DNA from: an uncultured Dehalococcoidales bacterium
GTDB taxonomy: Bacteria; Chloroflexota; Dehalococcoidia; GIF9; UBA5629
NCBI GenBank assembly: GCA_964437795.1
Contig: CAYTIC010000001.1
Coordinates: 86,864 to 150,863, forward strand
DNA length: 64,000 nt
Direction of reading: 5' to 3'
Made by a program: the position numbers and the translations under genes. The notes beneath the pieces are model-generated. The model searched no databases. It was not told where the DNA came from and saw only the letters and a program-made list of their open reading frames with translations. Shown piece after piece: positions 6,931-54,168 of the stretch (within the stretch, counting starts at the first letter, position 1; each line of letters starts with the position of its first letter).

Positions 6931-6943
6931 GAGAAGGGGAAAG

Positions 6944-7026
6944 TGCCGAGGGAGGGACTTGAACCCACACTCCCGTGAGGGAAGCGGATTTTAAGTCCGC
7001 CGCGTCTGCCATTCCGCCACCTCGGC
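6944..7026 (-). tRNA. tRNA-Leu(TAA), type II with long variable arm, no encoded CCA
   Basis: Hand-folded: acceptor GCCGAGG/CCTCGGC, anticodon stem GCGGA/TCCGC with loop CTTAAAA, variable arm CCC-TCAC-GGG, T-loop TTCAAGT (one T-T mismatch in the T stem). Confidence 0.85.
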
Positions 7027-7033
7027 ATTTTCT

Positions 7034-7109
7034 TGGAGGCGGCGAGCGGAGTCGAACCGCTGTATAGGGGTTTTGCAGACCCCCGCCTTAACCACTTGGC
7101 TACGCCGCC
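7034..7109 (-). tRNA. tRNA-Cys(GCA), CCA encoded
   Basis: Acceptor GGCGGCG/CGCCGCC, anticodon stem GGGGT/ACCCC with loop CTGCAAA, T arm AGCGG-TTCGACT-CCGCT. Confidence 0.9.
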
Positions 7110-7123
7110 ACGTAAATAAAAAA

Positions 7124-7198
7124 TGGAGCGGAAGACGGGGCTCGAACCCGCGACATCCTCCTTGGCAAGGAGGCATTCTACCACTGAATTACTTCCGC
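7124..7198 (-). tRNA. tRNA-Gly(GCC), CCA encoded
   Basis: Acceptor GCGGAAG/CTTCCGC, anticodon stem CCTCC/GGAGG with loop TTGCCAA, T arm GCGGG-TTCGAGC-CCCGT. Confidence 0.9.
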
Positions 7199-7226
7199 TC
7201 GCTCAACTATTAGTATATATTCAATT

Positions 7227-7314
7227 TGGTGCCGAGGAGGAGATTTGAACTCCTACGGGCTTACGCCCACCACCCCCTCAAGATGGCGTGTCTACCAGAT
7301 TCCACCACCTCGGC
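7227..7314 (-). tRNA. tRNA-Leu(GAG), type II, CCA encoded
   Basis: Acceptor GCCGAGG/CCTCGGC, anticodon stem CCATC/GGTGG with loop TTGAGGG, long variable arm, T arm AGGAG-TTCAAAT-CTCCT. Confidence 0.9.
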
Positions 7315-7391
7315 TGGCAGGGGTGGCAGGATTCGAACCCACGACACGCGGTTTTGGAGACCGCTGCTCTACCAGGCTGAGCTACACCCCT
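7315..7391 (-). tRNA. tRNA-Trp(CCA), CCA encoded
   Basis: Acceptor AGGGGTG/CACCCCT, anticodon stem GCGGT/ACCGC with loop CTCCAAA, T-loop TTCGAAT. Confidence 0.85.
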
Positions 7392-7672: not shown

Positions 7673-8938
7673 TTGAGAAAAACACTTCTATTAAGCCTTG
7701 CTGTAGTCATGTTGTTAGCTGGCGCCTGCACCTCTTCAACTGCACGACCGACACCGGCGGAAACACAGATTCCATCCCAACCCCCGCCGGCCACTGTTCC
7801 AGACCAGACGGTAACTCCCGCTTCCGGACAGGAACGGCTCCCCGAGCCAATAATTACCAATAACTCGGTAGAAATTTGTCTGAACAGCAGATATTCTGAG
7901 CATGGCCTCACCGGCACTGCCAGCGACCGGCAAATGTCTAATATTTTATGGGCCGCGGGTAAGGCACCGGTCACCGGGACATATCGCAATATCTATATAG
8001 CTACACCAAAAGGGGAATACTCATACAACCCCGGCACACACTCGCTGAATCAATATTCCGACCAGAAAGTGACTGACTATAATAATATTTTCACCAGTTT
8101 GAACGACAGGGCTTTTGTGATCAACTGCGATAGTAATCTACCCTTCGATACCGGCGTTGCCTATCAGCTAGCTATTCTGTCGTCTGTGTCATTGGGTAAA
8201 AGCAGCGAACCGGCCGTGGCAAACTGCCCGGTGATGACAAGCCTGCACTTTGGCGTACAGGGGGTGAGGGAGTTGACCCCCGAGCTGGTGGCACATTCCT
8301 CCGTGCCGCAAAGCGATCCCGGATGGCTGCCGGACCCATCAACAAATGGCCTGAATAAACTTGAAGATGTACTGGCTAATTTGAAGTATGTCACCAGGTT
8401 TTCCTCGGAAAACTTAACTCTGCAGCAGACATCTCAACTACTGTGGGCGGGCTACGGCTGCACTCCCCATCTGGCATTTGCAGGTCAGAGAGGTTTAACG
8501 GTACCTTCAGCCTCGGCCAGATATTATCTGACAGGTGAAATCTATCTGGTTAACGAAAAGGGAGTCTACCGCTACCAGAACAGGAATCCTAAAACAGACC
8601 TGACAACCGTAGACCATCGAATCGTGCCCATAAATACCACCGACGTAAGGGAACAACTGCGAGCTGCTGTCAGCAGTCTGCCACAGGCGCCGTGCTACAT
8701 AGTACTCTGCCTCCCCAAAACCGGTTGGCGTATCGCGGCAGAGCAAGAGTTTGCACTCGAAGAGGCGGGGTTTGTTGCCGGTAATGTTCTTCTCCAGGCA
8801 TCCGCTATCGGTTTGGGATGCAACTTCGAGACCACCTTGACCTCTGATGAGCAAACGGGCATTCAGAAATTGACCGGTATACCTTCTTCAGACACGCCAC
8901 AGGTCATCATCAGCATAGGCGGATTAGCCACTAAATAG
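7673..8938 (+). CDS. probable lipoprotein with two nitroreductase-fold (SagB/ThcOx-like) halves
   Basis: TTG start 8 nt after the AGGAGG-like caggagga. Signal MRKTLLLSLAVVMLLAGAC followed by a Pro/Thr-rich linker. The C-terminal half has QLLWAGYGCT...GLTVPSASARYYL..IYLVNEKGVYRY, typical of SagB-type nitroreductase domains. The N-terminal half is a weaker copy (SNILWAAGKAP...YIATPKGEYSY). Confidence 0.55.
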   Translation: MRKTLLLSLAVVMLLAGACTSSTARPTPAETQIPSQPPPATVPDQTVTPASGQERLPEPIITNNSVEICLNSRYSEHGLTGTASDRQMSNILWAAGKAPVTGTYRNIYIATPKGEYSYNPGTHSLNQYSDQKVTDYNNIFTSLNDRAFVINCDSNLPFDTGVAYQLAILSSVSLGKSSEPAVANCPVMTSLHFGVQGVRELTPELVAHSSVPQSDPGWLPDPSTNGLNKLEDVLANLKYVTRFSSENLTLQQTSQLLWAGYGCTPHLAFAGQRGLTVPSASARYYLTGEIYLVNEKGVYRYQNRNPKTDLTTVDHRIVPINTTDVREQLRAAVSSLPQAPCYIVLCLPKTGWRIAAEQEFALEEAGFVAGNVLLQASAIGLGCNFETTLTSDEQTGIQKLTGIPSSDTPQVIISIGGLATK

Positions 8939-9025
8939 AACCATCTATGGAATCGTCGTCTCATGCCCCTCTCAACCTCCCGCCGGCTGAACAGATTCCG
9001 GTTTGCCGCAATTATTAAAAATTTG

Positions 9026-9101
9026 TGGTACCCCTGGTGCGAGTCGAACGCACGACACGCGGTTTAGGAAACCGCTGCTCTATCCACTGAGCTACAGGGG
9101 C
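9026..9101 (-). tRNA. tRNA-Arg(CCT), CCA encoded
   Basis: Anticodon stem GCGGT/ACCGC with loop TTCCTAA, T arm GTGCG-TTCGACT-CGCAC, acceptor GCCCCTG/CAGGGGT (G1-T72 wobble). Confidence 0.85.
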
Positions 9102-9110
9102 ACGTCTCCG

Positions 9111-9761
9111 TTAACGCATACGCCGGACCCGGAAACCTTCAGGCGTTATATAACTGCCTTTGCCGGGCTCTTCAGCTGAAGGCTCCTTGCCCTCTCTGCG
9201 AACCGCGACTTCCTTGCCGCCCGTCGGCAACTCGGCTTTGGCCCTGGGTTTTCCGCTGTCCCGGGCTAACAAAACACCCTGTGGTGTCCTGGCCGGACCC
9301 TCGACTGTCTCCTCTTCTTCGGATGGCTTCTCAAGACGTCTCAAGGGCACCCTGCCGTCATCAGCCCTTAACTCGGACCTGGGCAGTTCCCTGGGCCTGA
9401 GCACCCTGCCGGTGCGGCCATAGCCGCGCAGCATCCTATCCTCGGTCACAGCAGGCTCTTCAATAGCAGCAACGGGGGCAGGGGCAGAAGGAGGCGGAAG
9501 CGCGCCGGTTTGGCGCATATCATTTAAGGTGGACTCCAGATCCTTGATCAGGTCGGTCAGCTCGATGGTATCGGCCTCCTCTTCCTCGGAGGCCCAGCTC
9601 TCGATCTCGGTGGCGTAATGCTGTAGTTTGAAGCTGTGTTGCTCAAGCTGTTTGATCCAGTCAGCCAGTTCCTTGGAAGCGTTCTGGATGTCGGGAATCT
9701 CAGTTTCAAGCAAATTCTTGATTAAATTCTGAACCGCGCTTTTTCTCGGCTTTGCAGCCAT
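9111..9761 (-). CDS. hypothetical protein (helical acidic N-terminus, disordered Arg/Glu/Pro-rich C-terminus)
   Basis: ATG at 9761 lies 6 nt after GAGG. No recognisable motif. Confidence 0.4.
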   Translation of the reverse strand: MAAKPRKSAVQNLIKNLLETEIPDIQNASKELADWIKQLEQHSFKLQHYATEIESWASEEEEADTIELTDLIKDLESTLNDMRQTGALPPPSAPAPVAAIEEPAVTEDRMLRGYGRTGRVLRPRELPRSELRADDGRVPLRRLEKPSEEEETVEGPARTPQGVLLARDSGKPRAKAELPTGGKEVAVRREGKEPSAEEPGKGSYITPEGFRVRRMR

Positions 9762-9860
9762 TTTCAACCTCGCTTTAACGGCCCGTACAATGATTCACAA
9801 TATCGTGACCGTAAGAAATTATAACAACGCACATGTACCAATGCAATGCGGGGAGGCAGA

Positions 9861-10118
9861 TCAGGCCTTGCGGACAAACACGTGATACTTGCCCGCAACC
9901 TCCTCAATGCCCAGGAACTCGTTGCCGGTCATCTTGGACCAGTTCGGCATGTCCTGCTTGATACCCTCATCATCAGCCACCACTTCCAGCACCTGACCCG
10001 GCTGCATGATCTTAATCTGTTTCGAAGTATTGACGATCGGCATGGGACAGTATAGCCCGATACAGTCGATGGTTATATCAGGTTTAAGGTTCTGCTTGAC
10101 ATTCTCTATCTCAGGCAT
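9861..10118 (-). CDS. tusA: TusA/SirA-family sulfurtransferase
   Basis: 85 aa. DCIGLYCPMPIV carries the conserved Cys-Pro-x-Pro active-site motif. Confidence 0.8.
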   Translation of the reverse strand: MPEIENVKQNLKPDITIDCIGLYCPMPIVNTSKQIKIMQPGQVLEVVADDEGIKQDMPNWSKMTGNEFLGIEEVAGKYHVFVRKA

Positions 10119-10132
10119 AAGGTCCCTCCCCT

Positions 10133-10339
10133 TTATTTAAGGGGCTTACCGCAACTGTGGCAGACAACCAGCGTTTCCTCCATAATGAGTGCGCCGCAGT
10201 TATTGCAGCGGCCGAAGCTCACCTTGCAGACCTCGCAGAACGGATTTTCGGCCAAAACGAGCTCCACGTCGCAGTATGGGCAGGTGCAGCGGCAGATCAG
10301 GGGTTTCTTTTCTTTATCATGTTTCGCAGGCATGTTCAT
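10133..10339 (-). CDS. small Cys-rich zinc-ribbon protein
   Basis: 68 aa with four CxxC-type pairs (CRCTCPYC, CEVC, CNNC, CHSC). Overlaps the 3' end of iscU. Confidence 0.5.
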   Translation of the reverse strand: MNMPAKHDKEKKPLICRCTCPYCDVELVLAENPFCEVCKVSFGRCNNCGALIMEETLVVCHSCGKPLK

Positions 10340-10754
10340 CCTCCTCCGGTTCTTCTTTATCCGTAAGTCCGGGAATATCGATCTTGTTCTTTATGGCATA
10401 GTCTTTTATGGCCTTGTGCAGAGCCTGTGCACCCAGGTTGGAACAGTGCATCTTGTTCTTGGGCAAGCCCTCCAGCTCCTTGGCCACCAGCGCAGGGGTC
10501 ACGGTCAGCGCCTCCTGCAGTGTCTTGCCCTTGACCAGGTCGCTGACCATGCTGGAGACGGCGATGGCTGCCCCGCAGCCGAAGGTCTTGTATTTCACAT
10601 CCTCGATCCGATTGTCCTTAACTTTTATGTAAAACGTCATCATGTCACCGCACACCGGGTTCCCAATCTCACCTACACCGTCTGCGTCGGCAATCTCACC
10701 CACATTGTGCGGGCTCATAAAATGCTGCATTACTTTCTCGCTGTATACAGGCAT
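10317..10754 (-). CDS. iscU: IscU/NifU-type Fe-S cluster scaffold
   Basis: The three scaffold Cys motifs are present: NPVCGD, FGCGAAIA, HCS. Start set at the ATG (MPVYSEK) 6 nt after AAGGGGTGA. Confidence 0.85.
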   Translation of the reverse strand: MPVYSEKVMQHFMSPHNVGEIADADGVGEIGNPVCGDMMTFYIKVKDNRIEDVKYKTFGCGAAIAVSSMVSDLVKGKTLQEALTVTPALVAKELEGLPKNKMHCSNLGAQALHKAIKDYAIKNKIDIPGLTDKEEPEEDEHACET

Positions 10755-10759
10755 AGCTA

Positions 10760-11944
10760 TCACCCCTTCTGTTCTTTGAGATATTTGGAATACAGTGGAG
10801 ACATCTGTCTCAGGCGGTCTACCACCTGCGGAAGTTTTTCCAGTACGTAGCTAACATCTTCTTCGTTGTTGTCAGGCCCCATGGTAAACAGCATGGACCC
10901 CTGGGCCAACTCGTGGTTGATCCCCATGGCCAACAGCACGTGCGAGGCTTTGAGCGCACGTGAGGTACAGGCCGAACCGCTGGCGGCCGCAATGCCGTGG
11001 CTGTTTAGCAGCATGAGTATGGCCTCGCCTTCGATAAAACGCAGGCAGAAGCTGGCATATCCCGGCAGCCTGTTAATCGGATGCCCCGTAAGGGTTGAAT
11101 GTTCGATCCTGCTCAGTACCCCCTCGATCAACATGTCGCGCAATCCGGACAATCGCTTCATTCTTCCCTCGAGGTCGCGTTTGGCTATTTCTGCAGCTTT
11201 GCCCAGTCCTGCGATAGCCGGAACGTCCTCGGTCCCCGGCCTTCGCCCGCCTTCCTGTATGCCCCCATCAAGCAGAGGCAACAACCTGACCCCGCGCTTG
11301 ATCCATAGAGCGGCACTGCCGCGAGGTCCGTTGAACTGATTGCCCGCCAGGCTGAGCGCATGCACGCCGAGCTCTTTGACATTAACCGGTATGTTTCCGG
11401 CGCTGGCCACGGCATCGGTATGGAATACTGGGCCGTCCTTTGACAGACCGGCGGCTATCTCTGCGATAGGCTCGATGGTACCGACCTCGCCGCTGGCGTG
11501 CATAACCGACACCAGGATAGTGTCGGGCCGGACAAGCTTCATAACCTCGGCAGGGTTGACCACACCGTTAGAATCAACGGGCGCCAGGCTGACCTCGAAT
11601 CCTTCTTTCTGCAGCGTGCGCGTGGAGTTCAACACTGAGAAGTGCTCGATGGCGGACACGACTATGTGCTTTCCCTTTTCGGCCCTGGCCCGGGCGATGC
11701 CTTTGATCGCCATATTGTTGGCCTCCGTGCCGCTGGATGTGAAAACGACCTCTTCGGGAACGCCCCCGATCAGCGCGGCGACCTGCTCCCGGGCGCCCTC
11801 AACAGCTTCCCTGGCCCCATCTCCCCAGTCGTGTAAAGACTGCGGATTGCCGAAAACTTCGCCCAGGTATGGCAGCATGGCCTCCCTGACCTCGGGCAAT
11901 AAAGGCGAGGCGGCAACATTGTCCATATAAACCTTTCTCATCAT
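10760..11944 (-). CDS. NifS/IscS-family (class V aminotransferase fold) cysteine-desulfurase homolog with the PLP-lysine motif substituted
   Basis: 394 aa with family motifs HTDAV, GGIQE, RPGTED and the active-site loop SGSACTS. Where the family has S-G-H-K-x-x-G-P-K-G, this protein reads A-G-N-Q-F-N-G-P-R-G. Confidence 0.75.
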   Translation of the reverse strand: MMRKVYMDNVAASPLLPEVREAMLPYLGEVFGNPQSLHDWGDGAREAVEGAREQVAALIGGVPEEVVFTSSGTEANNMAIKGIARARAEKGKHIVVSAIEHFSVLNSTRTLQKEGFEVSLAPVDSNGVVNPAEVMKLVRPDTILVSVMHASGEVGTIEPIAEIAAGLSKDGPVFHTDAVASAGNIPVNVKELGVHALSLAGNQFNGPRGSAALWIKRGVRLLPLLDGGIQEGGRRPGTEDVPAIAGLGKAAEIAKRDLEGRMKRLSGLRDMLIEGVLSRIEHSTLTGHPINRLPGYASFCLRFIEGEAILMLLNSHGIAAASGSACTSRALKASHVLLAMGINHELAQGSMLFTMGPDNNEEDVSYVLEKLPQVVDRLRQMSPLYSKYLKEQKG

Positions 11945-11989: not shown

Positions 11990-12901
11990 TCAAAGGGCCA
12001 GCATTTTATCAACGGCCGAGAGCGCACGCTCCCGCACATCGGCCGGCACCTTCACTTCCGGCTTCATATCCTCCAACGCCCAGAGCACCTTCTCCAATGT
12101 TATCTTCTTCATGTTGGGACAGACCGCCTTCAACGTTGCCGGGACGAAAGTCTTGCCCGGGTTCTCTTTTTTAAGCCTGTGCAGTATGCCTGTCTCAGTT
12201 CCGATTATCATGACTTTAGCACCTGAAGTGGGCGCATAACGCAGCATACCACCGGTGCTGAGTACCTCGTCTGCGACTTCGGTCACTTCCGGCCGGCATT
12301 CGGGGTGAACCAGGGCCACAGCACCCGGGTACTTCTTTTTCTGATCGATGATATCCTGCGCCTGTATCTTGACATGGGTAGGGCAGAAGCCCGGCCACAG
12401 GACCATGGGCCTGTTGAGCCTGGTCGCTACGTAATGCCCGAGATACTGGTCGGGTATGAAAAGTATTTCCCCTTCACCCATGCTCCGGACCACGTTGACC
12501 GCGTTGGCCGAGGTGCAGCAAATGTCGGACTCGGCCTTAACCGCCGCCGACGAGTTGACGTAGCATACGACGCGTGCCCCCGGCAGCTCCTTTTTTCGGG
12601 CGACCAGTTGTTCCTCCGTAATCATATCGGCCATGGGACAGCCGGACTGCGCATCGGGCAGCAGCACCAGGCTATTGGGAGACAGGATGGAGGCCGTCTC
12701 AGCCATGAAATGCACGCCGCAGAAGACAATTACCTCAGCCTTCACCTCGGCCGCTTTGCGGCTCAACTCAAGCGAATCACCGACGAAGTCGCCGATGTCC
12801 TGTACCTCCGGGCGCTGGTAGTTGTGCGCAAGGATGACAGCACCGCGTTTTTTCTTCAATTCGAGTATCCTGTCGATCAGTTCCTTGTTTTTGTTATCCA
12901 T
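11990..12901 (-). CDS. nadA: quinolinate synthase
   Basis: 303 aa. ILAHNYQRPEVQDIGDFVGDSL plus three-domain repeat features including the conserved Cys residues. Confidence 0.85.
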   Translation of the reverse strand: MDNKNKELIDRILELKKKRGAVILAHNYQRPEVQDIGDFVGDSLELSRKAAEVKAEVIVFCGVHFMAETASILSPNSLVLLPDAQSGCPMADMITEEQLVARKKELPGARVVCYVNSSAAVKAESDICCTSANAVNVVRSMGEGEILFIPDQYLGHYVATRLNRPMVLWPGFCPTHVKIQAQDIIDQKKKYPGAVALVHPECRPEVTEVADEVLSTGGMLRYAPTSGAKVMIIGTETGILHRLKKENPGKTFVPATLKAVCPNMKKITLEKVLWALEDMKPEVKVPADVRERALSAVDKMLAL

Positions 12902-13487
12902 TTCCTTCTCGTACGTACAGGCGAGCTATCTCGATGGCCGTCCTGACCACGCTCACAGCATCGTTTCCCAATGCCACGAAAAGCGGCTCCTTGCCCCAGC
13001 CATCACCCTCGTAAAAAAGGTCCGGCACCCTGCCGCTGCGGCCGGCAAGCTGCTTTATCTTCCAGGGCATGGACTTGCCATCGGCTTTTGACACTTCGCC
13101 CGGCTCCCTGGTACGGTCGATCCAACCGAATGCCAGCTTCTTCGCGCGGGCGTATTTCTTCACGACCTTTATGATATCGTCGTTGCATTTAAAATTTATA
13201 CCTGCATTGACTTCCGGATTGTACTTCCTGGCCTCCATGATCAATCGCGCCATGTGGTCCGAGGCACCCCACTTTGGCAACCCCGAAGCCCTGGGAAATC
13301 CATTTACCACCGTTATCCTGCCGTCAATAGCGGCTGCTTCTGTAGATTTGCCGGCGCCGGGCAGGGCGTACACTATATTGACGCGCACCTCGGGCATGAG
13401 CATAGAGAACTCCCTGCAGCGCTGAAGCCTTTCCACCGCCAGGCAGAGATTGCCTATAACAATTTCAGCTGCATTTTTCTTCTTCAT
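12894..13487 (-). CDS. ThiN-type thiamine-phosphate synthase domain protein
   Basis: 197 aa. MPEVRVNIVYA...AAIDGRI...WGASDHMARLI resembles the archaeal/Chloroflexi ThiN domain. 8-nt overlap with nadA. Confidence 0.5.
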   Translation of the reverse strand: MKKKNAAEIVIGNLCLAVERLQRCREFSMLMPEVRVNIVYALPGAGKSTEAAAIDGRITVVNGFPRASGLPKWGASDHMARLIMEARKYNPEVNAGINFKCNDDIIKVVKKYARAKKLAFGWIDRTREPGEVSKADGKSMPWKIKQLAGRSGRVPDLFYEGDGWGKEPLFVALGNDAVSVVRTAIEIARLYVREGNG

Positions 13488-13490
13488 AGG

Positions 13491-14513
13491 TCAGCCCTCG
13501 ACCGCGCTGAAATAGGCCGGCCAGAACGGGTCTGCCAGTACCGGCATCAGCTTCTGTTTTTTCCCCGACTTCCTGATGAACAACCTGTCGCGCGCAGTGA
13601 TCTCCCCGATGTCCCAGGCGGCTATATTCTTCTTTTTCAACCTGGCGATGATCTTGCTGCTATTTGCAGGGGAAGCGGTGATTATCAGAGTGCCTTCGCT
13701 GATGGAGATCAGCGGGTCGATCTTAAACGCCCTGCAAACGGCATCCACTTCATCCGGCACCACGATCCTGTCCTCATATAATGTCACGCCCAGCTTCGAG
13801 GCTGCTGCAATCTCGTAGACGCCGTTTAGCAGCCCTCCTTCCGTGGCATCATGCATGGCGTGCGCCAGCGGCGCCGCCGTGAGCGCATCCTCCACCACAG
13901 TCATCTGCATCAAATATTTCTTGGCCTTTGTCACGGTGCTCCTTCCCAGCTTTTTTGTCAGTGATTTGGCTGCCTGCCATACCAGCAGTCCGGTCGCTTC
14001 GATGGCCGGCCCCTTGGTCATGATCACGCGATCACCCACCCTGGCATTACAGGCCGGCGTAATCTGCTCCCTCTTGCCTATGCCCATCACCGTGCAGCCA
14101 CCGTTCAGCGGATAGGCAATGCCCGGGTAGATGCAGGTATGGCCGCCGATAATGGCGATGTCCAGTTTCTTGCATTCCTCATCCACCTGCCCCCATACCA
14201 TATCCATAACGTCTTCGTCCGTGCCCGGCGGGAACATCAGGCAGATGGTCATATACCTGGGTTTGACGCCCAGAACAGCTACATCGCTGGCGCAGATGTG
14301 CACTATTGCCCAGCCGAAATAGGGCATTATCACGGGCATTGCGAATGTCGGGTCCTCGGCAATAACCATGACATCGCCGCCGGGCAGGTCGATGACCGCC
14401 GCGTCCACGCCGTGCTGAGGGCCTATGAATACCGATTTGTCTTTCTTGCCCAGCCTCGACAGGATCATCCGGTCGAAAGTGGCCCGGTCCAGCTTGCCTA
14501 CTTCAGGTAGCAT
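13491..14513 (-). CDS. AIR-synthase-related protein (PurM/ThiL/HypE superfamily)
   Basis: Start set at the ATG (MLPEVGKL) 6 nt after GAGGAG. GVDAAVIDL...VIAEDP and the IIGGHT motif are typical of this ATP-binding fold. Confidence 0.6.
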   Translation of the reverse strand: MLPEVGKLDRATFDRMILSRLGKKDKSVFIGPQHGVDAAVIDLPGGDVMVIAEDPTFAMPVIMPYFGWAIVHICASDVAVLGVKPRYMTICLMFPPGTDEDVMDMVWGQVDEECKKLDIAIIGGHTCIYPGIAYPLNGGCTVMGIGKREQITPACNARVGDRVIMTKGPAIEATGLLVWQAAKSLTKKLGRSTVTKAKKYLMQMTVVEDALTAAPLAHAMHDATEGGLLNGVYEIAAASKLGVTLYEDRIVVPDEVDAVCRAFKIDPLISISEGTLIITASPANSSKIIARLKKKNIAAWDIGEITARDRLFIRKSGKKQKLMPVLADPFWPAYFSAVEG

Positions 14514-14584
14514 TACAATCTCCTCACGCGATTTAATGAGATTATAATACATTCGGCGGATCGTTTAATCAACCTGGTTGGTAT

Positions 14585-17127: not shown

Positions 17128-17994
17128 ATGGACGCCATTAGCATCGCGACAAAGCTTATCGGCCTTTACAGCAAAAAGGCCCTCTCAGGCAGCGGTCAGA
17201 AAATCAAGGTAATCAGCCTGGAGGACAGCCGTACTGTTGCTTTGCGCAGCGGCCTTATACCTCTGCAAACTGAAATAGTCTGCTTCGAAAACAGTGTTAT
17301 CCCTATGCGCTACCTGCGCAACATGGGCACTATCGGCATCGAAGGGCAATTGAAGCTACTGCGCTCTACTGTGGCGGTCTGCGGCGCCGGCGGCCTGGGA
17401 GGCACCGTTATCGAGCTGCTGGCCAGGCTTGGTGTCGGACACTTAGTGATAATCGATAACGGCAGGTTCGTGGAAAACAACCTTAACCGCCAGATCATGT
17501 CGGAGGAGAATGTCCTGCGCAGATCAAAGGTGAAGGTAGCCGCCGAACGCGTCAGGCGCATTAACTCCGCGGTGGTTGTAACGGAGCGCCCGGCCTATAT
17601 CGATGATCCCAGCGTGGACAGGCTGCTGAAGCAGGTGGATGTCGTAGTGGATGCACTCGATAGCCTGGCCACGCGGCTGGTAGTTGAGGCAGCCTGCCGG
17701 AGGCTCGGGGTTCCTTTTGTACACGGCGCCATCGCAGGCTTCAACGGCCAGGTGATGACGGTGCTGCCGGGCGACAAAGGTCTTGCCGCCATTTACGGCC
17801 CCGGACGTGACAGCAGCGGCCTTGAGGCCATCACGGGCAACCCGCCCGCCACCGCTGCCGGCATCGCCGCCTGGGAGGTACAGGAGGTAATCAAACTGGT
17901 CACCGGTACCGGGACCCCCGTGCGCAACCGGCTGCTCTTTTTGGATTTCACCGACGGCAGCATGGACGAGATACCACTGGCGCAGGATATTTGA
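17128..17994 (+). CDS. ThiF/MoeB/HesA-family E1-like adenylyltransferase with a roughly 59-aa N-terminal extension
   Basis: VAVCGAGGLGGTVIELLARLGVGHLVIIDNGRFVENNLNRQ (nucleotide-binding Gly-rich loop plus the NLNRQ motif). No SD precedes the ATG. TATAAT sits at 17114-17119. Confidence 0.75.
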   Translation: MDAISIATKLIGLYSKKALSGSGQKIKVISLEDSRTVALRSGLIPLQTEIVCFENSVIPMRYLRNMGTIGIEGQLKLLRSTVAVCGAGGLGGTVIELLARLGVGHLVIIDNGRFVENNLNRQIMSEENVLRRSKVKVAAERVRRINSAVVVTERPAYIDDPSVDRLLKQVDVVVDALDSLATRLVVEAACRRLGVPFVHGAIAGFNGQVMTVLPGDKGLAAIYGPGRDSSGLEAITGNPPATAAGIAAWEVQEVIKLVTGTGTPVRNRLLFLDFTDGSMDEIPLAQDI

Positions 17995-45138: not shown

Positions 45139-46284
45139 TCAGCCGGATGCGTTATCGACGATTTCAACTACATCCAGTATTTGAATTGAATCGCTCGCGC
45201 CCAGGGTGAGCACGGCGTCTTCAAACATCGTCATGCAATAGGGGCATGAAACGGCCAATACCTGTGCCCCGCTTTCCATCGCCTGCCTGACGCGCAGTTC
45301 GGCGAACCGCTCCTCTTTCTTCGATTCCAACCAGAGGCCGCCGGCGCAACCGCCGCAGCATAATGAATCTGCGTGATGGTCGGACATTTCTACCAGGTCC
45401 ACCCCCGGGATGCTGTGCAAAACATTGCGGGGCTCATCATAAATGCCCTGATACCTGCCCAGGCAGCAGGAATCGTGATAGGCAACCTTCTTTTGCGGGC
45501 CCTTGCCCAATTTAACGCTGCCCGCTTTTATCAGCTCATCCAAATACCGGACTATATGGATTACCTCGAAACCGCCGCCGAGCTCAGGGTATTCGTCCTT
45601 TAAAGTGTTGTAACAGTGCGGCGACCCTACCAATATCCTCTTGACGCCCGCAGACTTCAGTGTCTCTATGTTATTCGATGCCAGGCTGGTAAAAAGGCCC
45701 TCCTTGCCCGCCTTCCGTATGCTTTCCCCGCAGCAGGACAGGCCTTTATCGATTATGCCGAAATCCACGTTGGCCCTGCGCAGGACATTTATCATTGACA
45801 CGGCTGTTCTTCGGCACCTGACGTCATAAGCCTGATAGCAGCAAACATACATCAGCATGTCGGTATTTGTTGAATACGCAGCGACATTCAGGCCCCTTAA
45901 CCATTCAGTGCGCGCTTCGTCCGGCTCGCCCAGCGGATTGCCCACACCGGCCAGGTTGGAGGCCACCGTGCGCAGGGAGCGGGGTATCGCGCCCGCGCCT
46001 ACTTCAGAGATGACCCTTCTGAGCGACCTGATCATGCGGGGTATGTCCACGCCGCGCGGACAGGCCTGTGCGCACGATCTGCACCCCACACACTTCCATA
46101 TCTCCTCGTTACCGAAATCGATCAATCCCAGCTGGGCCTGATGCAGCAGGCTGCGAACACCCAGATGCCCGCCTATGTTCCACGGACATACAGCTGTGCA
46201 CAACCCGCACTGAAAACAGTGATCGAGGTCTGCGCCGCCCTGCTCCTTTATGGCATCAGTGATTTCCGGTGATATATCCACCAT
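45139..46284 (-). CDS. soluble HdrD-like (fused HdrC+HdrB) Fe-S/CCG-domain protein occupying the QmoC position
   Basis: 381 aa. CFQCGLCTAVCP and CVGCRSCAQACP, then two CCG-type Cys-rich regions (VCCYQ..SCCGES..PHC; DSCCLG..LCCGGCAGG..SCPYC). No hydrophobic segment. Confidence 0.7.
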   Translation of the reverse strand: MVDISPEITDAIKEQGGADLDHCFQCGLCTAVCPWNIGGHLGVRSLLHQAQLGLIDFGNEEIWKCVGCRSCAQACPRGVDIPRMIRSLRRVISEVGAGAIPRSLRTVASNLAGVGNPLGEPDEARTEWLRGLNVAAYSTNTDMLMYVCCYQAYDVRCRRTAVSMINVLRRANVDFGIIDKGLSCCGESIRKAGKEGLFTSLASNNIETLKSAGVKRILVGSPHCYNTLKDEYPELGGGFEVIHIVRYLDELIKAGSVKLGKGPQKKVAYHDSCCLGRYQGIYDEPRNVLHSIPGVDLVEMSDHHADSLCCGGCAGGLWLESKKEERFAELRVRQAMESGAQVLAVSCPYCMTMFEDAVLTLGASDSIQILDVVEIVDNASG

Positions 46285-46314
46285 CTACGCTGTATTCCTT
46301 GCGATCATCTGCAT

Positions 46315-48444
46315 TTACAGATCCTTATACGGGTTCGGCCCGATCTTCTCAATCCCGGTTAGAAACTCATCCAGAATGCCCGGCAGTGTGCCGTATTCCT
46401 CCACGGAAAGCTGCACTACACGCAGCCGCTCCGGCTCCAGCGCCAGCTTGTTAAGGGTATCCTGCATCTTTTGAATCCTGTCGTCGGCCAGCTCGCTGCC
46501 GGTTATGTTATGGCACTGATAGTCTCCACCGTATTTGCAGCCCACCATGATGATGCCGTCGAAACCGCTGGAGAGCGCATCGACGATCCAGACCATATTT
46601 ATCGATCCCAGGCACCTCACGGGTATGACCCTGATAAAGGGATTGAAGGCCATGCGCCCGGTACAGGCCATGTCCAGGGCGGGGTAAGCATCGTTTTCGC
46701 ACAAAAATGCTAGTATGCGCGGCTTGTCCTCTTCCGCCCCCGGCATCTGAATTGACTTGATCATTGATCCTATAATGTCAACCGAATAGTCGGCAAACGA
46801 AATAATCCTCTCAGGACACGCGCCCATACAGATGCCGCACCTCCTGCACCGCGTGGGATTGGGCAGCGGATTATACTTATCGTCCTCGTCATACATGCCG
46901 AAAGGGCACTCTTCAGTGCATCTCTTGCACTGGGTGCACCTGGCCATATAGAGGTCGGGGTAACTGGTATCGCCGGCCCTGGGATGCACTGACTCTCCCC
47001 TGGCAACCATTTCCACACATTGAATGGCCTTGACCACGGCGCCGTTTGCATCTTCACAGCTTGACAGGCTGTCTAAGGGTTGCCTGGCACAGCCGGCTGA
47101 GTAGACGCCTGTACGGCGTGTCTCATAGGGAAAACAGATAAAATGCGAATCCGGGAACCCGTATTTAAGCTCCGGCAATTCCGCGCCCTGCCTGTAGGCC
47201 AGGCTGAGCGCCGGCGGGGGTGACGGTTCAATGCCCGCAGCCAGGACCACCAGGTCGGCCTGTACAGTCACCTTCTCGCCCAAGAGAAGGTCCTGCATTT
47301 CAACCATAATGCCGTTTTCAGCGGCGGCCACTCCGGTTATCTCCGCCCTGGCCAGGTAAACAGACCCCGACTCCTGCGTATTTCGATAGAACTCCTCGTA
47401 CAGGGAAGGCGCGCGCATGTCCTTGTAGAAAATATAGGCCTTTGAATCGGCATTGCTCTTCGTTACGTAAACCGCCTGCTTGAGGGAGGTCAGGCAGCAG
47501 AAGGACGAGCAATACGGCAGATGGCTGTCGTCACGCTGCCCGGCGCACTGAATAAACGCCACGCTTTTTACAGGCTTGCCGTCCGACGGCCTTTTGATCA
47601 CGCCGTCGAAGGCCAATTGCTCCATTTGTACGTTGGTGATGATATCCGGGTGACTGCCGAAACCCAGGTGCGCCAGGCGTTCGGCATTATACGGCTGAAA
47701 TCCGGTGGCTTGAATAATGGAGCCCACCCTCAAAGATACGGCGCCGCTCGGACTCCTGAGAGAAACATCGAACATACCCGGCGAACCCTCGATCTTCTCG
47801 ACCTCCGCCGACTTGAATACCCTGATCAGCGGGTCGTTTTCCAGGGCGGCGGCCAGCGCTACAATCCCGGTGTCCTCCGGTTCCCGGTACGGGGGATGCT
47901 TTGGATATCCACGATATAGTTTCGTCATCCACCCGCCTAAAGAAGGGCTCTTTTCCACCAGGCACACCTCGTATCCGGCCCCGGCGGCGCCCAGCGCGGC
48001 GGTGATCCCAGTTATACCGCCCCCTATGACCAAAATAGTCTTGCTGATCTCGGGCAAATACGGTACCGCAGGAGATGTTTTGGCGATCCCGGCGAGGCCC
48101 ATCCTCAGGCAATCTTCCGCCATCATCTGCGTATCCGGATCGCCAGGCAGGTGGGACCAGGCCACCTGCTCCCTTAAATTCACCCTTTCCAGGATCACAG
48201 AACTATCGAAGGTGAAACATCCCTGTTTAACACGTGGCGAGCAGGCGCCTATCACCAGCCTGCAAGGACTGCCGGCAATGTCATCATCTATCGATAGCCG
48301 CCCATCTGCGCTGCACAGTGACGGATGGATCCGGCAAATGTCGGCTTTATATTCATTGACCGCCACTTCGCTCAATTTCTCGAGTGAAAGGGCCTCCCCG
48401 ATGCCGCACCCGCTGCACAAATATACGGCCAGTTTATTTGCCAT
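46315..48444 (-). CDS. qmoB: QmoB-like HdrA-family flavoprotein with C-terminal MvhD-like domain
   Basis: Start set at MANKLAVYLCSGCG. FAD fold ILVIGGGITGITAA, ferredoxin motifs CTQCKRCTEECP and CRRCGICMGACP, and the C-terminal ILAFLCENDAYPA...VRCLG...GCKYGGDYQCH (MvhD type). Confidence 0.75.
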   Translation of the reverse strand: MANKLAVYLCSGCGIGEALSLEKLSEVAVNEYKADICRIHPSLCSADGRLSIDDDIAGSPCRLVIGACSPRVKQGCFTFDSSVILERVNLREQVAWSHLPGDPDTQMMAEDCLRMGLAGIAKTSPAVPYLPEISKTILVIGGGITGITAALGAAGAGYEVCLVEKSPSLGGWMTKLYRGYPKHPPYREPEDTGIVALAAALENDPLIRVFKSAEVEKIEGSPGMFDVSLRSPSGAVSLRVGSIIQATGFQPYNAERLAHLGFGSHPDIITNVQMEQLAFDGVIKRPSDGKPVKSVAFIQCAGQRDDSHLPYCSSFCCLTSLKQAVYVTKSNADSKAYIFYKDMRAPSLYEEFYRNTQESGSVYLARAEITGVAAAENGIMVEMQDLLLGEKVTVQADLVVLAAGIEPSPPPALSLAYRQGAELPELKYGFPDSHFICFPYETRRTGVYSAGCARQPLDSLSSCEDANGAVVKAIQCVEMVARGESVHPRAGDTSYPDLYMARCTQCKRCTEECPFGMYDEDDKYNPLPNPTRCRRCGICMGACPERIISFADYSVDIIGSMIKSIQMPGAEEDKPRILAFLCENDAYPALDMACTGRMAFNPFIRVIPVRCLGSINMVWIVDALSSGFDGIIMVGCKYGGDYQCHNITGSELADDRIQKMQDTLNKLALEPERLRVVQLSVEEYGTLPGILDEFLTGIEKIGPNPYKDL

Positions 48445-49705
48445 TTGACCGCCCTTTCCTGACCGACCCAATAGCCTTCAAAACTGCGCCCGTCGCGTCT
48501 CTGACCGACGATCCCACGTCCATCGGCCTTTTCACGCATCCCGCGGCGTAAATACCCGCCAGGTCGGAGACCATAAATCCGCAGGAGTCTTTGCCGGGTC
48601 CGGCGGGCAGCCAGTCCGTCGCTGCAGGGACCATTCCCGTGGCCAGCACCACCATGTCCACCCTTTGCCTGACCATTTTTCCCTGCTCTGTATCCTCAGC
48701 TTCGACGAAAAGGTCGTTTGTTGCGGGGTCCTGCTTTATGCGTGATACCTTCCCGCGAAGGAACGACACCCCTTGCATATCCTGAATCCGACGGTAAAAA
48801 TCCTCCTGCGTACCCTGGGCCCGCAAGTCGATGTAATAGATGGCCACCCGGGCATCCGGATTGTGCTCCTTAATATAAGTTGCCTGCTTAAGCGAAGCCA
48901 TGCAGCAGACGCCCGAACAGTAGGACAGGTGGTTTACGTCCCGGGAGCCCGCACACTGCACGAATGCGATTGAGGATACCTCTTTTCCGTCCGACGGACG
49001 CACCAGGCGCCCGTCACGCAGCCCGGCGCCTGATGCCAGCCTCTCCATCATCATATTGGTGATTACATTGGGATAAACGCCGAAGCCGAGCCGGTTCAGC
49101 CGGGCTGCATCATAAGATTCCCAACCCGTGGTCACTATAATCGATCTGCAATTGACCGTGACCACCTGCTCTTCCATCTGCAGGTCGATAGCCCCGTAAC
49201 GGCAGGCGGAAACGCATTTTGCGCAATCGCTGCCCGTACAGGCATCTTTATCCACGGTATATGTCGGAGGATATGCCTGCACATGCGGCAGGTAAATAGC
49301 TTTAGTGTTGTCCCACCCGTAGTTGAAATCGTTCGGCCTTTGGACCGGGCAAACCGTTTCACATTCGCCGCAGGCCGTGCAATTATCGTTCACCATGCGC
49401 GGCAGCAGCCGGACCGATACCTTGAAGTCTCCCTCACTTCCCTCAACAGCCTCCACCATAGCCATGGTGAAAACCCTGATTCCCCGATTAACCTTGATCC
49501 GCTTGAAATTGAGCTCGAGGCCGCAGGCCGGGGGACATAGTTTGGGGAAATAGCGGCTCATCCTGACGGCCTTCCCTCCCAGGAAAGGCTCCTTCTCAAG
49601 CAGGATGATCTTGTAACCTATCTCGACCGCCTCAACCGCCGCGGCTATCCCGCTTACACCGCCGCCCACTACCAGGATATCGGTTGAAACAGCAGTCTGT
49701 TGCAT
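48434..49705 (-). CDS. qmoA: QmoA-like HdrA-family flavoprotein
   Basis: 423 aa. ILVVGGGVSGIAAA, CTACGECETVCP, FVQCAGSRD..SYCSGVCC. Confidence 0.75.
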   Translation of the reverse strand: MQQTAVSTDILVVGGGVSGIAAAVEAVEIGYKIILLEKEPFLGGKAVRMSRYFPKLCPPACGLELNFKRIKVNRGIRVFTMAMVEAVEGSEGDFKVSVRLLPRMVNDNCTACGECETVCPVQRPNDFNYGWDNTKAIYLPHVQAYPPTYTVDKDACTGSDCAKCVSACRYGAIDLQMEEQVVTVNCRSIIVTTGWESYDAARLNRLGFGVYPNVITNMMMERLASGAGLRDGRLVRPSDGKEVSSIAFVQCAGSRDVNHLSYCSGVCCMASLKQATYIKEHNPDARVAIYYIDLRAQGTQEDFYRRIQDMQGVSFLRGKVSRIKQDPATNDLFVEAEDTEQGKMVRQRVDMVVLATGMVPAATDWLPAGPGKDSCGFMVSDLAGIYAAGCVKRPMDVGSSVRDATGAVLKAIGSVRKGRSNGK

Positions 49706-49720
49706 AGAGCGCCAGCGTTA

Positions 49721-51610
49721 TCAGCCGACCAATGGGATAACGTCCTTCTTAAATACCGACCATTTGCCGGAAGCGGGGTCCCACCTGCAATTGACGAAAC
49801 ACTTCCAGTTGCTGTCGTCCAGCCGGGGTACATCCGCCCGGAAATAGTAGCCGGGCCACCTGGTCTCTTCCCTGAAGAGCACCGAACGGATATGTGATTC
49901 GGCCTGCCACAGCCGGTGCTGGTTTTCCCAGCAGCGCATGAGCTCGTGGAGGTTTTCGGCCGCCAGTTTTTCCGCATCTTCGCGCAGGAAATCCAGCAAT
50001 TCAAGGCCCTTCTCCAACGAGAGCTTATTGGTCGTAAACTGGGTAGTTGCGCCCCCTGCGTACTCATCCATGATCTTCTGCAGCCGTACCATGAACTGCT
50101 TCGGCTTGAGATAATTTTCGCTGACATCCGGATTGTCGGTAAGTTTGCCGTACTGGTCAAACAGTTCAAGCGGTTTGAAAAGGCGTTTCTTAAGCGCTTC
50201 AACCTGCGCAGTATCGATGTTCGGCTGCTCCGGATGATCGACTATATAGGCGATGGATGCTTTAGCAGCGATCCTGCCTTCGCAATGCGAGCCGTCGGAG
50301 AACTTATGGCTGGATGCGCCGGACGCGTCGCCTGCGCAGAATATCCCTTTCACGGTGGCCATACGGTTATAACCCCAAAAATACTCTTTGGGTGACAGGT
50401 CTTCCGGTCCGCTGACCCATGCGCCCGAAGCGCCTGAATGCGAACCTATGAAATATGGTTCGCAGGCCTGTATTTCTGAGGGCTTTTCCTCGGGCTGCGT
50501 ATTGGTCCCCGCCCAGAGAATGGCCTGCGATATTGTCATATCCAGAAAATCTTCCCACGCTTCCGATTCGACCTCTTTCATGCGTTTTCGCCGTTCTTTT
50601 TCATCGCTGATGGCGGAGAGCATCCTGGCAATTGCTTCATCAGTTCGCATGTACATAGGGCCCTTGCCTTCATTTTGGTCCAGCATCATCAGGTAATTTC
50701 GCAGGTTGGCGGGGATGGGCTTGGACGATCCGTACGGCCCCCAGTTCTCCAGGTCTTTCTTGCGCTCCGACATGTAATCCTGGCCGAGCGCATTGGTAGC
50801 TATAGACTTGAAAAGAAGGAACCATGCGCCGACGGGCCCATAGGCGTCTTTGAAACGAACCGGGATAAAACGCACTTCCTGGCACGTCATCTCGCAGCCG
50901 CTCTTCAAAGTAAAATAGGCGCTTGAACCGCTGTTGAAGGGGGGATACCAGCTCCTTCCCTGCCCTTCACCTACCGAGCGGGGCCGGAATATGTGCACTG
51001 CACCGCCCATGGCCACCAGGACCGCTTTAGCCTTGAATATGTAGAACTTGTTCTCGCGTGTGCTGAAGCCGACAGCTCCTGCAACCCTGTCTCCATCGAT
51101 AAGCGGCTCTACTATGAATACCCGCTCATAGATATTATTTTCGCCAATAGTTGCCAGCGCGTTGCGGGCCGCCTCTGCAACAATGTTTTTATACGATTCA
51201 CCGTTGATCATGACCTGCCAGCCGCCCTCGAATACATAGTCGCCTTTATCGTCTTTCCAGATGGGAAGGCCCCACTTCTCGAAGAGGTGCACCGTGCTGT
51301 CCACGTGCCGCGCGATATCGTATACAAGGTCCTCGCGGGAGATGCCCATCAGGTCGTTCCTGACATAGCGCACGTAGTCTTCCGGGGTCTTGTCCCTGCT
51401 CTTCATGCCGACATACATATTGAGAGCGGAAAGCCCCTGTGCGACCGCGCCGCTGCGCTCGATGGCAGCCTTGTCGACCAGCGTCACCTTCAGGTTGTGC
51501 CTCTTCGCCCAGTAAGCGGCTTCGACCGCGGCGCCGCAGGCCGCCATGCCGCCGCCGATGATAAGCAGGTCGGTGTTTACTTCTACCGTCTGTATTTCTG
51601 ACATGAACAA
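49721..51610 (-). CDS. aprA: adenylylsulfate (APS) reductase alpha subunit
   Basis: 629 aa. DLLIIGGGMAACGAAVEA FAD fold, with length and sequence typical of AprA, directly after aprB. The true start may be the ATG at 51604 (MSEIQTV). Confidence 0.85.
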   Translation of the reverse strand: MFMSEIQTVEVNTDLLIIGGGMAACGAAVEAAYWAKRHNLKVTLVDKAAIERSGAVAQGLSALNMYVGMKSRDKTPEDYVRYVRNDLMGISREDLVYDIARHVDSTVHLFEKWGLPIWKDDKGDYVFEGGWQVMINGESYKNIVAEAARNALATIGENNIYERVFIVEPLIDGDRVAGAVGFSTRENKFYIFKAKAVLVAMGGAVHIFRPRSVGEGQGRSWYPPFNSGSSAYFTLKSGCEMTCQEVRFIPVRFKDAYGPVGAWFLLFKSIATNALGQDYMSERKKDLENWGPYGSSKPIPANLRNYLMMLDQNEGKGPMYMRTDEAIARMLSAISDEKERRKRMKEVESEAWEDFLDMTISQAILWAGTNTQPEEKPSEIQACEPYFIGSHSGASGAWVSGPEDLSPKEYFWGYNRMATVKGIFCAGDASGASSHKFSDGSHCEGRIAAKASIAYIVDHPEQPNIDTAQVEALKKRLFKPLELFDQYGKLTDNPDVSENYLKPKQFMVRLQKIMDEYAGGATTQFTTNKLSLEKGLELLDFLREDAEKLAAENLHELMRCWENQHRLWQAESHIRSVLFREETRWPGYYFRADVPRLDDSNWKCFVNCRWDPASGKWSVFKKDVIPLVG

Positions 51611-51623
51611 TATCCCCCGGATT

Positions 51624-52076
51624 TCAGTCCTTTTTTAACGTCGGTAATTTTTCGATGCCCAGTGATTCTGGCTCAGTGAACAACAGCGGGCTTTTCAATT
51701 CGTCAGCCTCAGGCGCTGTATTAAAGCCCCCGTCCGGAACCGCCGAGCCCTCGGGAGTGGTGCGGGTGCGAAACTTAAAGCGCTTGATGGCGCCGTTTCT
51801 GAATTTCACGGTCCAGATGATGCTGTCGCTGCCTCTCAGAGGTGTAACACTCGCTCCAAGGGGCACGAAATCCGCGTATCCCCTGACGGCTATAGCCTGC
51901 TGAGGGCATATCTTTACGCAGCTATAGCATTCCCAGCACATGGAAGGGTCGCGGTTGAATGCCTTCTGCGTCTCTCCATTCAGGGCCATCAGGTCGTTGG
52001 GACAAATGTACTGGCAGGCTGTCTTATCCTTGCCTTTGCAGCCGTCACATTTACTGATGATTACAAAACTCGGCAT
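51624..52076 (-). CDS. aprB: adenylylsulfate (APS) reductase beta subunit
   Basis: 150 aa. Hallmark N-terminus MPSFVIISKCDGCKG, CQYICPNDLM, CWECYSCVKICPQ. Confidence 0.85.
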   Translation of the reverse strand: MPSFVIISKCDGCKGKDKTACQYICPNDLMALNGETQKAFNRDPSMCWECYSCVKICPQQAIAVRGYADFVPLGASVTPLRGSDSIIWTVKFRNGAIKRFKFRTRTTPEGSAVPDGGFNTAPEADELKSPLLFTEPESLGIEKLPTLKKD

Positions 52077-52091
52077 ATCCTTATTCCTTAT

Positions 52092-52916: not shown

Positions 52917-52932
52917 TATCGGTCCCCCTTTT

Positions 52933-54138: not shown

Positions 54139-54168
54139 AGTGATAATTGATTGAAAAAGGGGCCGGAC

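Follow-up and report, generated by a model that had tools for sequence, protein, structure and literature searches.

We describe a four-gene operon at positions 9861-11944 of the minus strand in a 64,000-nt stretch of DNA (hereafter the window) from an uncultured Dehalococcoidales bacterium. It encodes an IscS/NifS-type protein of the class V aminotransferase fold that lacks the lysine forming the Schiff base with pyridoxal phosphate (PLP), followed by an IscU scaffold, a double zinc-ribbon protein and a sulfur carrier of the TusA family. The iscS gene (10760-11944) specifies 394 residues, of which 5-366 match Aminotran_5 (PF00266, 2e-62); its relatives are annotated from Met7, which gives 388 residues. 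The product of iscU (10317-10754) has 145 residues (NifU_N, 1e-46). The zinc-ribbon gene (10133-10339) encodes 68 residues, with eight cysteines arranged as four CxxC and a weak, below-cutoff match to Zn_ribbon_3, and tusA (9861-10118) encodes 85 residues with a C24-P-M-P motif (PF01206, 3e-24, 85.1 bits against a cutoff of 28.6).

The junctions were re-read and are as given in the first-pass annotation of this DNA, which had described an iscS stop 5 nt from the iscU start, a 68-residue gene with four CxxC overlapping the iscU end, and tusA next. The iscS TGA is followed after 5 nt by the iscU ATG, the zinc-ribbon gene starts within iscU, with an overlap of 23 nt, and 14 nt separate the zinc-ribbon TAA from the tusA ATG. 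A purine-rich stretch, Shine-Dalgarno-like by eye, is found just before each start in the operon. To judge from gene spacing alone, iscS and iscU would be translationally coupled.

In the ungapped HMMER alignment the window sequence L-S-L-A-G-N-Q-F-N-G-P-R-G falls over A-S-F-S-A-H-K-M-Y-G-P-K-G of solved desulfurases. HMMER and MAFFT alignments both place Gln203 (codon CAG, 11336-11338, minus strand) at the position of the PLP Schiff-base lysine, K206 in Escherichia coli IscS. The replacement of S-x-H-K by A-G-N-Q that had been read from the sequence by eye is upheld by these alignments, and there is no equivalent lysine. The whole protein has no H-K dipeptide, no lysine stands close to the site in the ungapped alignment, and the family motifs HTDAV, GGIQE, RPGTED and SGSACTS are all present, as previously noted. 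Using E. coli IscS numbering transferred by MAFFT, the other substitutions are H205 to N202, S203 to A200, Q183 to A180, N155 to Gly and R354, which binds the substrate carboxylate, to Leu. T76, H104, D180, T243 and C328 are retained, the last as Cys326 in S-G-S-A-C-T-S, and the mobile-loop region matches that of lysine-containing homologs in length (type I loop). Residues for substrate chemistry are gone; those that hold the B6 ring and phosphate remain, as does the sulfur-carrying cysteine. The protein scores under every NCBIfam desulfurase equivalog cutoff, the best model being NifS (465.8 bits versus 530.75), with the IscS models at 343-354 versus 548-643 bits. At the level of sequence, catalytic loss is well supported. 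Matches in the PDB include 9wep (2e-126) and IscS2 of Archaeoglobus fulgidus (4eb5, 8e-113). The nearest solved structures (9wep, 9wew, 9wer, 9wfe, 9wf8, 9wfb and 9wfy) are point variants of one 406-residue, lysine-containing 'cysteine desulfurase'.

Sequencing error or a pseudogene could be ruled out, because lysine is absent from the site in all 119 closest homologs that span it. These homologs (69-100% identity, almost all from metagenome-assembled genomes (MAGs) of Dehalococcoidia) carry Gln in 117 cases, Ser in one and Glu in one; the Q-type motifs of related loci spell this Gln as CAG in 30 cases and as CAA in two. In a library of 1.8 billion proteins, 30 of the 150 nearest representatives of 50%-identity clusters lack the lysine (Q, T, R, S, L and others) and all 150 have the loop cysteine. 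We compared 216 lysine-less with 141 lysine-containing homologs. In the lysine-less group Ala183 occurs in 195 sequences, Asn205 in 176 and Leu or Val354 in 202, changes that co-vary with the loss of lysine, and the group retains Cys328 (216), Asp180 (216) and His104 (213). The lysine-less state appears, from the 119 closest homologs, to be under purifying selection. In a neighbour-joining tree with unreliable deep nodes, the lysine-less proteins form two separate clades that are not sisters, one of 126 archaeal (D-type) and one of 86 bacterial (Q-type) sequences, and the Fitch minimum on that tree is seven state changes. The two clades have derived residues in common at positions 12, 106 and 183.

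A protein of this kind has been characterised. IscS2 of A. fulgidus has Asp199 in place of the lysine, binds pyridoxamine phosphate (PMP) rather than PLP, lacks desulfurase activity and was proposed to be a scaffold partner that gives one cysteine ligand to the [2Fe-2S] cluster on IscU; sulfide was hypothesised as the sulfur source and assembly without a desulfurase was called an open question (PMC8918507, PMC7585200). These reports match what the first-pass annotation had stated, namely an inactive, lysine-less A. fulgidus IscS in complex with IscU. The D199K variant still holds PMP, not PLP (PMC8918507). The A. fulgidus pair (AF0564/AF0565; PDB 4eb5, 4eb7, 4hvk and 4r5f) and the window proteins have the type I IscS fold in common (E = 8e-113), as well as a residue other than lysine at 206, Ala183, Asn205 and Leu354, and both keep the loop cysteine, Asp180 and His104. 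The A. fulgidus motifs read S-S-N-D and H-I-D-A-T-A-S. Both organisms have iscU immediately downstream and a persulfide-carrier gene adjacent, of the DsrE family in A. fulgidus and TusA in the window. They differ in the replacement of the lysine, Gln in the window versus Asp in A. fulgidus, with Ser203 and Asn155 also lost in the window. Unlike the A. fulgidus locus, that of the window is bacterial and its operon includes a zinc-ribbon gene and tusA. The locus is a bacterial member of a known, poorly understood kind, the A. fulgidus-type dead desulfurase. A second archaeal pair, IscS1-IscU1 of Methanosarcina acetivorans (MA0808/MA0807), is uncharacterised and formed inclusion bodies; an ANME-2 locus related to it (L057) has the order tusA-dsrE-iscS(SSND)-iscU.

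The partner proteins retain the residues expected of their families. IscU passes the TIGR03419 NifU_clost cutoff (194.1 bits versus 187.9) and falls under that of the SufU model (73.8 versus 92.5 bits). It contains the three cluster cysteines with Asp and His, the motifs N-P-V-C-G-D and M-H-C-S being visible, and Cys35, Cys60 and Cys104 occur in at least 96% of 72 homologs. TusA Cys24 of the C-P-M-P motif occurs in every one of 43 locus-linked TusA proteins, and the two conserved Asp of the family are present by eye in the window protein. With 52.3 bits it stays under the cutoff of 78 of the NCBIfam TusA equivalog, which suggests a TusA-family member, not necessarily the TusA of tRNA thiolation. 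The eight zinc-ribbon cysteines are conserved at 96-100% in 26 orthologs, one of which (L083) has a weak DZR match. Among the fetched loci this gene follows iscU in Chloroflexota and one Clostridia MAG only. A mediocre single-sequence AlphaFold model of the zinc ribbon (pLDDT 66) suggests small all-beta Cys4 knuckles, and no PDB fold matched this model better than E = 1.5. The gene after iscU varies: the double zinc ribbon in Chloroflexota has in its place a 51-residue TRASH/YHS-type metal-binding protein in Hadesarchaea (L087, 5546-5701) and a 112-residue helix-turn-helix protein in A. fulgidus (L081, 7620-7958).

In order to place the operon in its genomic context, 80 genome loci of relatives (designated by L numbers) were fetched and annotated with the window proteins as queries, and their IscS proteins were classed by alignment. 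A same-strand tusA gene lies within 3 kb in 42 of the 48 lysine-less loci with enough flank versus none of the 22 gene copies with lysine (Fisher p = 4e-13, with no phylogenetic correction), and a TusA profile hidden Markov model matched nothing in any of 27 lysine-containing loci. Gene order differs between lineages. With iscS standing for the lysine-less gene and znr for the zinc ribbon, it is iscS-iscU-znr-(dsrE)-tusA in Dehalococcoidia, Anaerolineae and one Clostridia MAG; tusA-iscS(A-A-H-Q)-iscU in Nitrospirota, Thermodesulfovibrionales and Desulfobacterota-type MAGs; iscS-dsrE-tusA in Firestonebacteria; tusA-iscS(S-S-N-D)-iscU in Ferroglobus placidus and a Bathyarchaeota genome; tusA-dsrE-iscS(S-S-N-D)-iscU in Hadesarchaea and ANME-2; and tusA-dsrE-iscS(S-S-N-D), with iscU not nearby, in Thermoplasmata. 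The linkage to tusA holds across several bacterial phyla and archaeal lineages despite the rearranged order. The role of TusA had initially been called open; its linkage turned out to tell more than any other feature of the locus.

DsrE-family proteins and TusA are sulfur transferases that cooperate in sulfur relays (PMC11094781). A DsrE or DrsE_2 gene is found in 21 of the 80 loci, with the Pfam identity checked for one bacterial and one archaeal example; L083 and L087 also have a DsrE-family gene. In A. fulgidus such a gene ends 10 nt upstream of iscS2, and the relative with the lysine-less copy 90% identical to that of the window (L001) carries one as well. No paper connecting lysine-less IscS with TusA or DsrE was found in a literature search that was incomplete, so that a prior description is possible; the conserved partnership is apparently undescribed.

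The genomes concerned probably hold more than one IscS-type gene. Whether a second, lysine-containing desulfurase exists had been raised by the first-pass annotation: the window contains a single Aminotran_5 gene and lacks SufB and SufC, and a lysine-containing paralog is present in the MAG of a close relative. This MAG (CAZKOL01) encodes, besides the 90%-identical lysine-less copy (L001), a 49%-identical paralog with S-A-H-K and Gln183 (L050), located directly after mnmA (tRNA 2-thiouridylase) and a PALP-family gene that is cysteine-synthase-like by eye (L050, 2382-5739). The lysine-containing paralog family is as abundant as the lysine-less family in Dehalococcoidia metagenomes, and in L021 both types lie in tandem, each with its own iscU. 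Such organisms thus probably own an active desulfurase, and the lysine-less protein is probably not their sole IscS-type gene. The suggestion of a structural, non-desulfurase IscS in a bacterium accordingly stands as far as the A. fulgidus-type signature in the sequence goes, with the amendment that it is probably not the only IscS-type gene of its genome. The active paralog would be wired to tRNA thiolation, and the Fe-S scaffold gene to the dead paralog and TusA, probably the inverse of the E. coli arrangement; tRNA thiolation may bypass TusA in these organisms.

Four observations underlie the reading we favour: catalytic residues are lost, the loop cysteine is kept, this state is conserved clade-wide, and the gene is tightly linked to iscU and tusA. 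We regard it as roughly an even bet (probability about 0.5) that the four genes form an Fe-S assembly module in which a desulfurase-dead IscU partner receives persulfide sulfur from TusA. How the proteins associate, which way sulfur flows, what loads TusA and what the zinc ribbon might do are inferred as follows. The lysine-less IscS would most likely dimerise and bind IscU as A. fulgidus IscS2 does, and its Cys326 would serve as persulfide carrier, as fourth ligand of the nascent IscU cluster, or as both. Sulfur would arrive as a persulfide on Cys24 of TusA, itself charged by a presumed loader; in many relatives a DsrE-family protein would pass sulfur on to TusA first. TusA would then deliver it to Cys326 or directly to IscU, replacing the PLP step. 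The zinc ribbon could be an adaptor, or a metal or electron donor.

The TusA step can be compared with that of E. coli, where Cys328 of IscS and Cys19 of TusA are about 4 A apart in the solved complex (PDB 3lvj; PMC2854127), so that for transfer from IscS to TusA persulfide exchange between the two has a structural basis that is established. Both protein families occur in the window and the Cys-Pro-x-Pro motif of TusA is common to both systems. The E. coli persulfide is generated by an active IscS and handed to TusA, which serves tRNA thiolation and molybdenum cofactor synthesis, the genes not being in one operon. As the lysine-less IscS is unable to generate a persulfide, sulfur would have to flow in the direction opposite to that in E. 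coli.

Several points weigh against this proposal. For A. fulgidus, free sulfide is what has been proposed in print, and this is compatible with the present data. The Fisher test treats related genomes as independent. About 6 kb separate iscS2 of A. fulgidus from the nearest tusA; in the window no open reading frame (ORF) of the DsrE family was found, no rhodanese was found near the operon, and there is no obvious route for loading TusA. Six lysine-less loci have no tusA nearby (L021, L045, L047, L048, L051 and L064). Similarly, iscU is missing nearby in five loci with tusA (L033, L039, L044, L055 and L058) and in L048, which is without tusA, and Fe-S assembly therefore may not be the sole output. 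Lastly, the IscS residues that contact TusA in E. coli (W45, E49, D52, R55, R220, R237 and others) do not separate lysine-less from lysine-containing homologs; on sequence grounds they would seem to speak neither for nor against TusA binding.

Among the alternatives, the A. fulgidus model as published deserves most attention, even though we think it rather unlikely here. It holds that the lysine-less IscS is a structural donor of a cysteine ligand, that clusters are built from free sulfide, and that TusA, the DsrE-family protein and the zinc ribbon serve other ends, such as sulfur export to thiolation or buffering of reactive sulfur. The residue signature is the same as that of the inactive A. 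fulgidus IscS2, for which sulfide is the hypothesis in the literature (PMC8918507), and reviews hold the MIS and SMS systems able to use sulfide (PMC13066941). The AprBA-QmoABC genes and sulfatases of the window make sulfite or sulfide metabolism plausible. What this model leaves unexplained is the linkage to tusA, found in 42 of 48 lysine-less loci and in no lysine-containing copies, across phyla and gene orders. Moreover, a dead desulfurase cannot load TusA, and TusA as an acceptor therefore needs a further sulfur source. Strict retention of the loop cysteine fits a TusA relay and free sulfide alike. The conserved partners, TusA and DsrE-family proteins, are persulfide carriers, and the comparative data do not point to free sulfide.

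Alternatively, the module might traffic sulfur rather than assemble clusters de novo, with IscS and IscU relaying persulfide sulfur from TusA to enzymes of cofactor or tRNA thiolation, much as SufU acts for SufS, or it might repair oxidised clusters; this we hold to be improbable. The five loci with tusA and without iscU would fit such a role, as would the position of the window module after thiN and nadA with a ThiF-type E1 gene nearby, and the rubrerythrin, rubredoxin-like, flavodiiron and thioredoxin-reductase-like genes that surround the module in several lineages. Against this, the IscU is of the scaffold type, with the NifU_clost cutoff passed and the SufU one not reached and with three Cys plus Asp and His in place. 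A [2Fe-2S] cluster is present in the A. fulgidus complex (PMC8918507), and in the close relative MnmA goes with the lysine-containing paralog rather than with the lysine-less module.

That the protein is still a cysteine desulfurase, working through non-covalent PLP or another catalytic base, seems very improbable. The residues that hold the ring and phosphate (Asp180, His104, Thr76 and Thr243) are retained and a B6 vitamer, PMP, is still found bound to A. fulgidus IscS2 (PMC8918507), but the lysine of Schiff base and proton transfer, His205, Gln183 and the carboxylate-binding Arg354 are all replaced, the ungapped alignment has no lysine near the site, and A. fulgidus IscS2 is inactive as a desulfurase, its D199K variant still holding PMP and not PLP (PMC8918507). 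Decay of a non-functional paralog after duplication of a working desulfurase, to which the lysine-containing paralogs in the close relative's MAG and in tandem in L021 might point, can practically be dismissed, given an intact, full-length reading frame, an operon structure conserved across phyla, and hundreds of homologs, some only about 45% identical, in which Cys, Asp and His are invariant and the pattern of substitutions is fixed.

Returning to persulfide delivery by TusA, we tentatively extend it, with somewhat less than even confidence, to the family as a whole. Lysine-less IscS of both the archaeal D-type and the bacterial Q-type, together with TusA and often a DsrE-family protein, would constitute a widespread, ancient, PLP-independent entry of persulfide into IscU-based Fe-S assembly, a distinct minimal ISC-like subtype, possibly for sulfur-rich or oxidatively stressed anaerobes. 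If true, this would answer how the A. fulgidus IscS-IscU pair obtains its sulfur. According to reviews, Fe-S biogenesis in most systems begins with a PLP-dependent cysteine desulfurase, and A. fulgidus IscS2 is the one characterised exception in the IscS family, for which the origin of sulfur was left as an explicit question (PMC8918507). Since the lysine-less form is common, is conserved in bacteria and archaea and is selectively linked to TusA and DsrE, this question becomes testable. Annotation pipelines call hundreds of lysine-less proteins 'cysteine desulfurase', which is almost certainly wrong, and the mislabelling carries over into metabolic reconstructions for Dehalococcoidia, Nitrospirota, Bathyarchaeia and other uncultured anaerobes.

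A related described category is the minimal iron-sulfur system (MIS; MisS-MisU), classified by Garcia et al. and reviewed in PMC13066941. Like the window operon it is built around a two-component pair of IscS-like and IscU-like proteins, occurs in anaerobes and archaea, and has been proposed to use sulfide. Neither HscAB, ferredoxin (Fdx) nor an IscA/A-type carrier appears among the Pfam assignments of window ORFs of at least 120 residues and of shorter ORFs within 8-14 kb. MIS is described with a cysteine desulfurase (PMC13066941), and a lysine-less, TusA/DsrE-linked subset is not distinguished in the accessible texts. In Bacillus subtilis NifS-NadA and YrvO-MnmA are dedicated desulfurase pairs (PMC13066941). 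The resemblance is twofold: nadA lies directly upstream of the IscS-type gene in the window, and the second IscS-type gene of the close relative stands beside mnmA in a YrvO-MnmA-like manner. The NadA-linked copy of the window is the catalytically dead one, unlike B. subtilis NifS.

The window nadA (quinolinate synthase; 11990-12901, minus strand; NadA 2e-122, above the NCBIfam cutoff) is a context gene 45 nt upstream of iscS. It stands next to lysine-less iscS-iscU in L001-L014, L024, L045 and L051, the last three being MAGs outside Chloroflexota, two of them from unrelated lineages. NadA is a [4Fe-4S] enzyme, and for this reason the adjacency fits a role in Fe-S maturation; the nadA product is a possible client of the module. 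Packed tightly upstream of nadA are thiN and a gene related to aminoimidazole ribonucleotide (AIR) synthase (12894-14552, minus strand), an order shared with the closest relatives only. The AIR-synthase-related gene of the PurM superfamily (13491-14552, minus strand) scores under the ThiL, HypE and SelD cutoffs alike and may encode a divergent ThiL. Its synteny with thiN, nadA and lysine-less iscS was found in L002-L009 and L066. In L066 (3368-7184) the AIR-synthase-related gene, thiN and iscS each appear as two ORFs, which may be an assembly indel artefact rather than decay. An Rfam scan returned tRNAs only, with no riboswitch upstream of thiN-nadA-iscS, and a promoter and terminator scan gave weak consensus matches only, one of them in the nadA-iscS spacer.

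Downstream of tusA lies a gene for a 218-residue acidic protein with no Pfam match (9111-9767, minus strand), whose membership in the module is uncertain; in the relative L006 a protein with a closely similar N-terminal region (8653-9291) follows tusA. Just past it, a tRNA-Arg(CCT) gene (9026-9101, minus strand) probably marks the end of the transcription unit, and five further tRNA genes (Leu, Cys, Gly, Leu and Trp) are clustered at 6943-7391 of the minus strand. In several relatives (L016, L020, L033, L039, L083 and L084) the module lies amid genes for rubrerythrin, rubredoxin-like, flavodiiron (ODP plus flavodoxin) and thioredoxin-reductase-like proteins. L083 has Fur upstream, and a heavy-metal P-type ATPase is encoded downstream in L083 and L057. 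The oxygen-defence neighbours hint at a stress-linked role in Fe-S assembly or repair.

Elsewhere in the window, an adenylylsulfate (APS) reductase-type module with the domain content of the dissimilatory type occupies 45139-55497 of the minus strand. It includes AprB (51624-52076), AprA (49721-51610), a QmoA-like protein (48434-49705), a QmoB-like protein with an MvhD/FlpD domain (46315-48471) and a CCG plus 4Fe-4S protein (45139-46284), all on the minus strand, and the AprBA-Qmo run is preceded by a gene of the phosphoadenylylsulfate (PAPS) reductase family, a sulfatase and an arylsulfotransferase. The sulfur operon with which the first-pass annotation had associated the lysine-less IscS is thus present as AprBA-QmoABC, and nothing physically links it to the iscS operon. 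A ThiF/MoeB-type E1-like gene (17128-17994, plus strand) lies some 5 kb away from the operon, and its product might draw on protein-bound sulfur. Between 28496 and 44211 the window encodes an acyl-CoA ligase, thiolase-like and DUF35 (ChsH2-type) proteins, enoyl-CoA hydratase, acyl-CoA dehydrogenase, SDR and old-yellow-enzyme proteins, with PadR and TetR regulators, a gene set that suggests beta-oxidation-like degradation of an acid.

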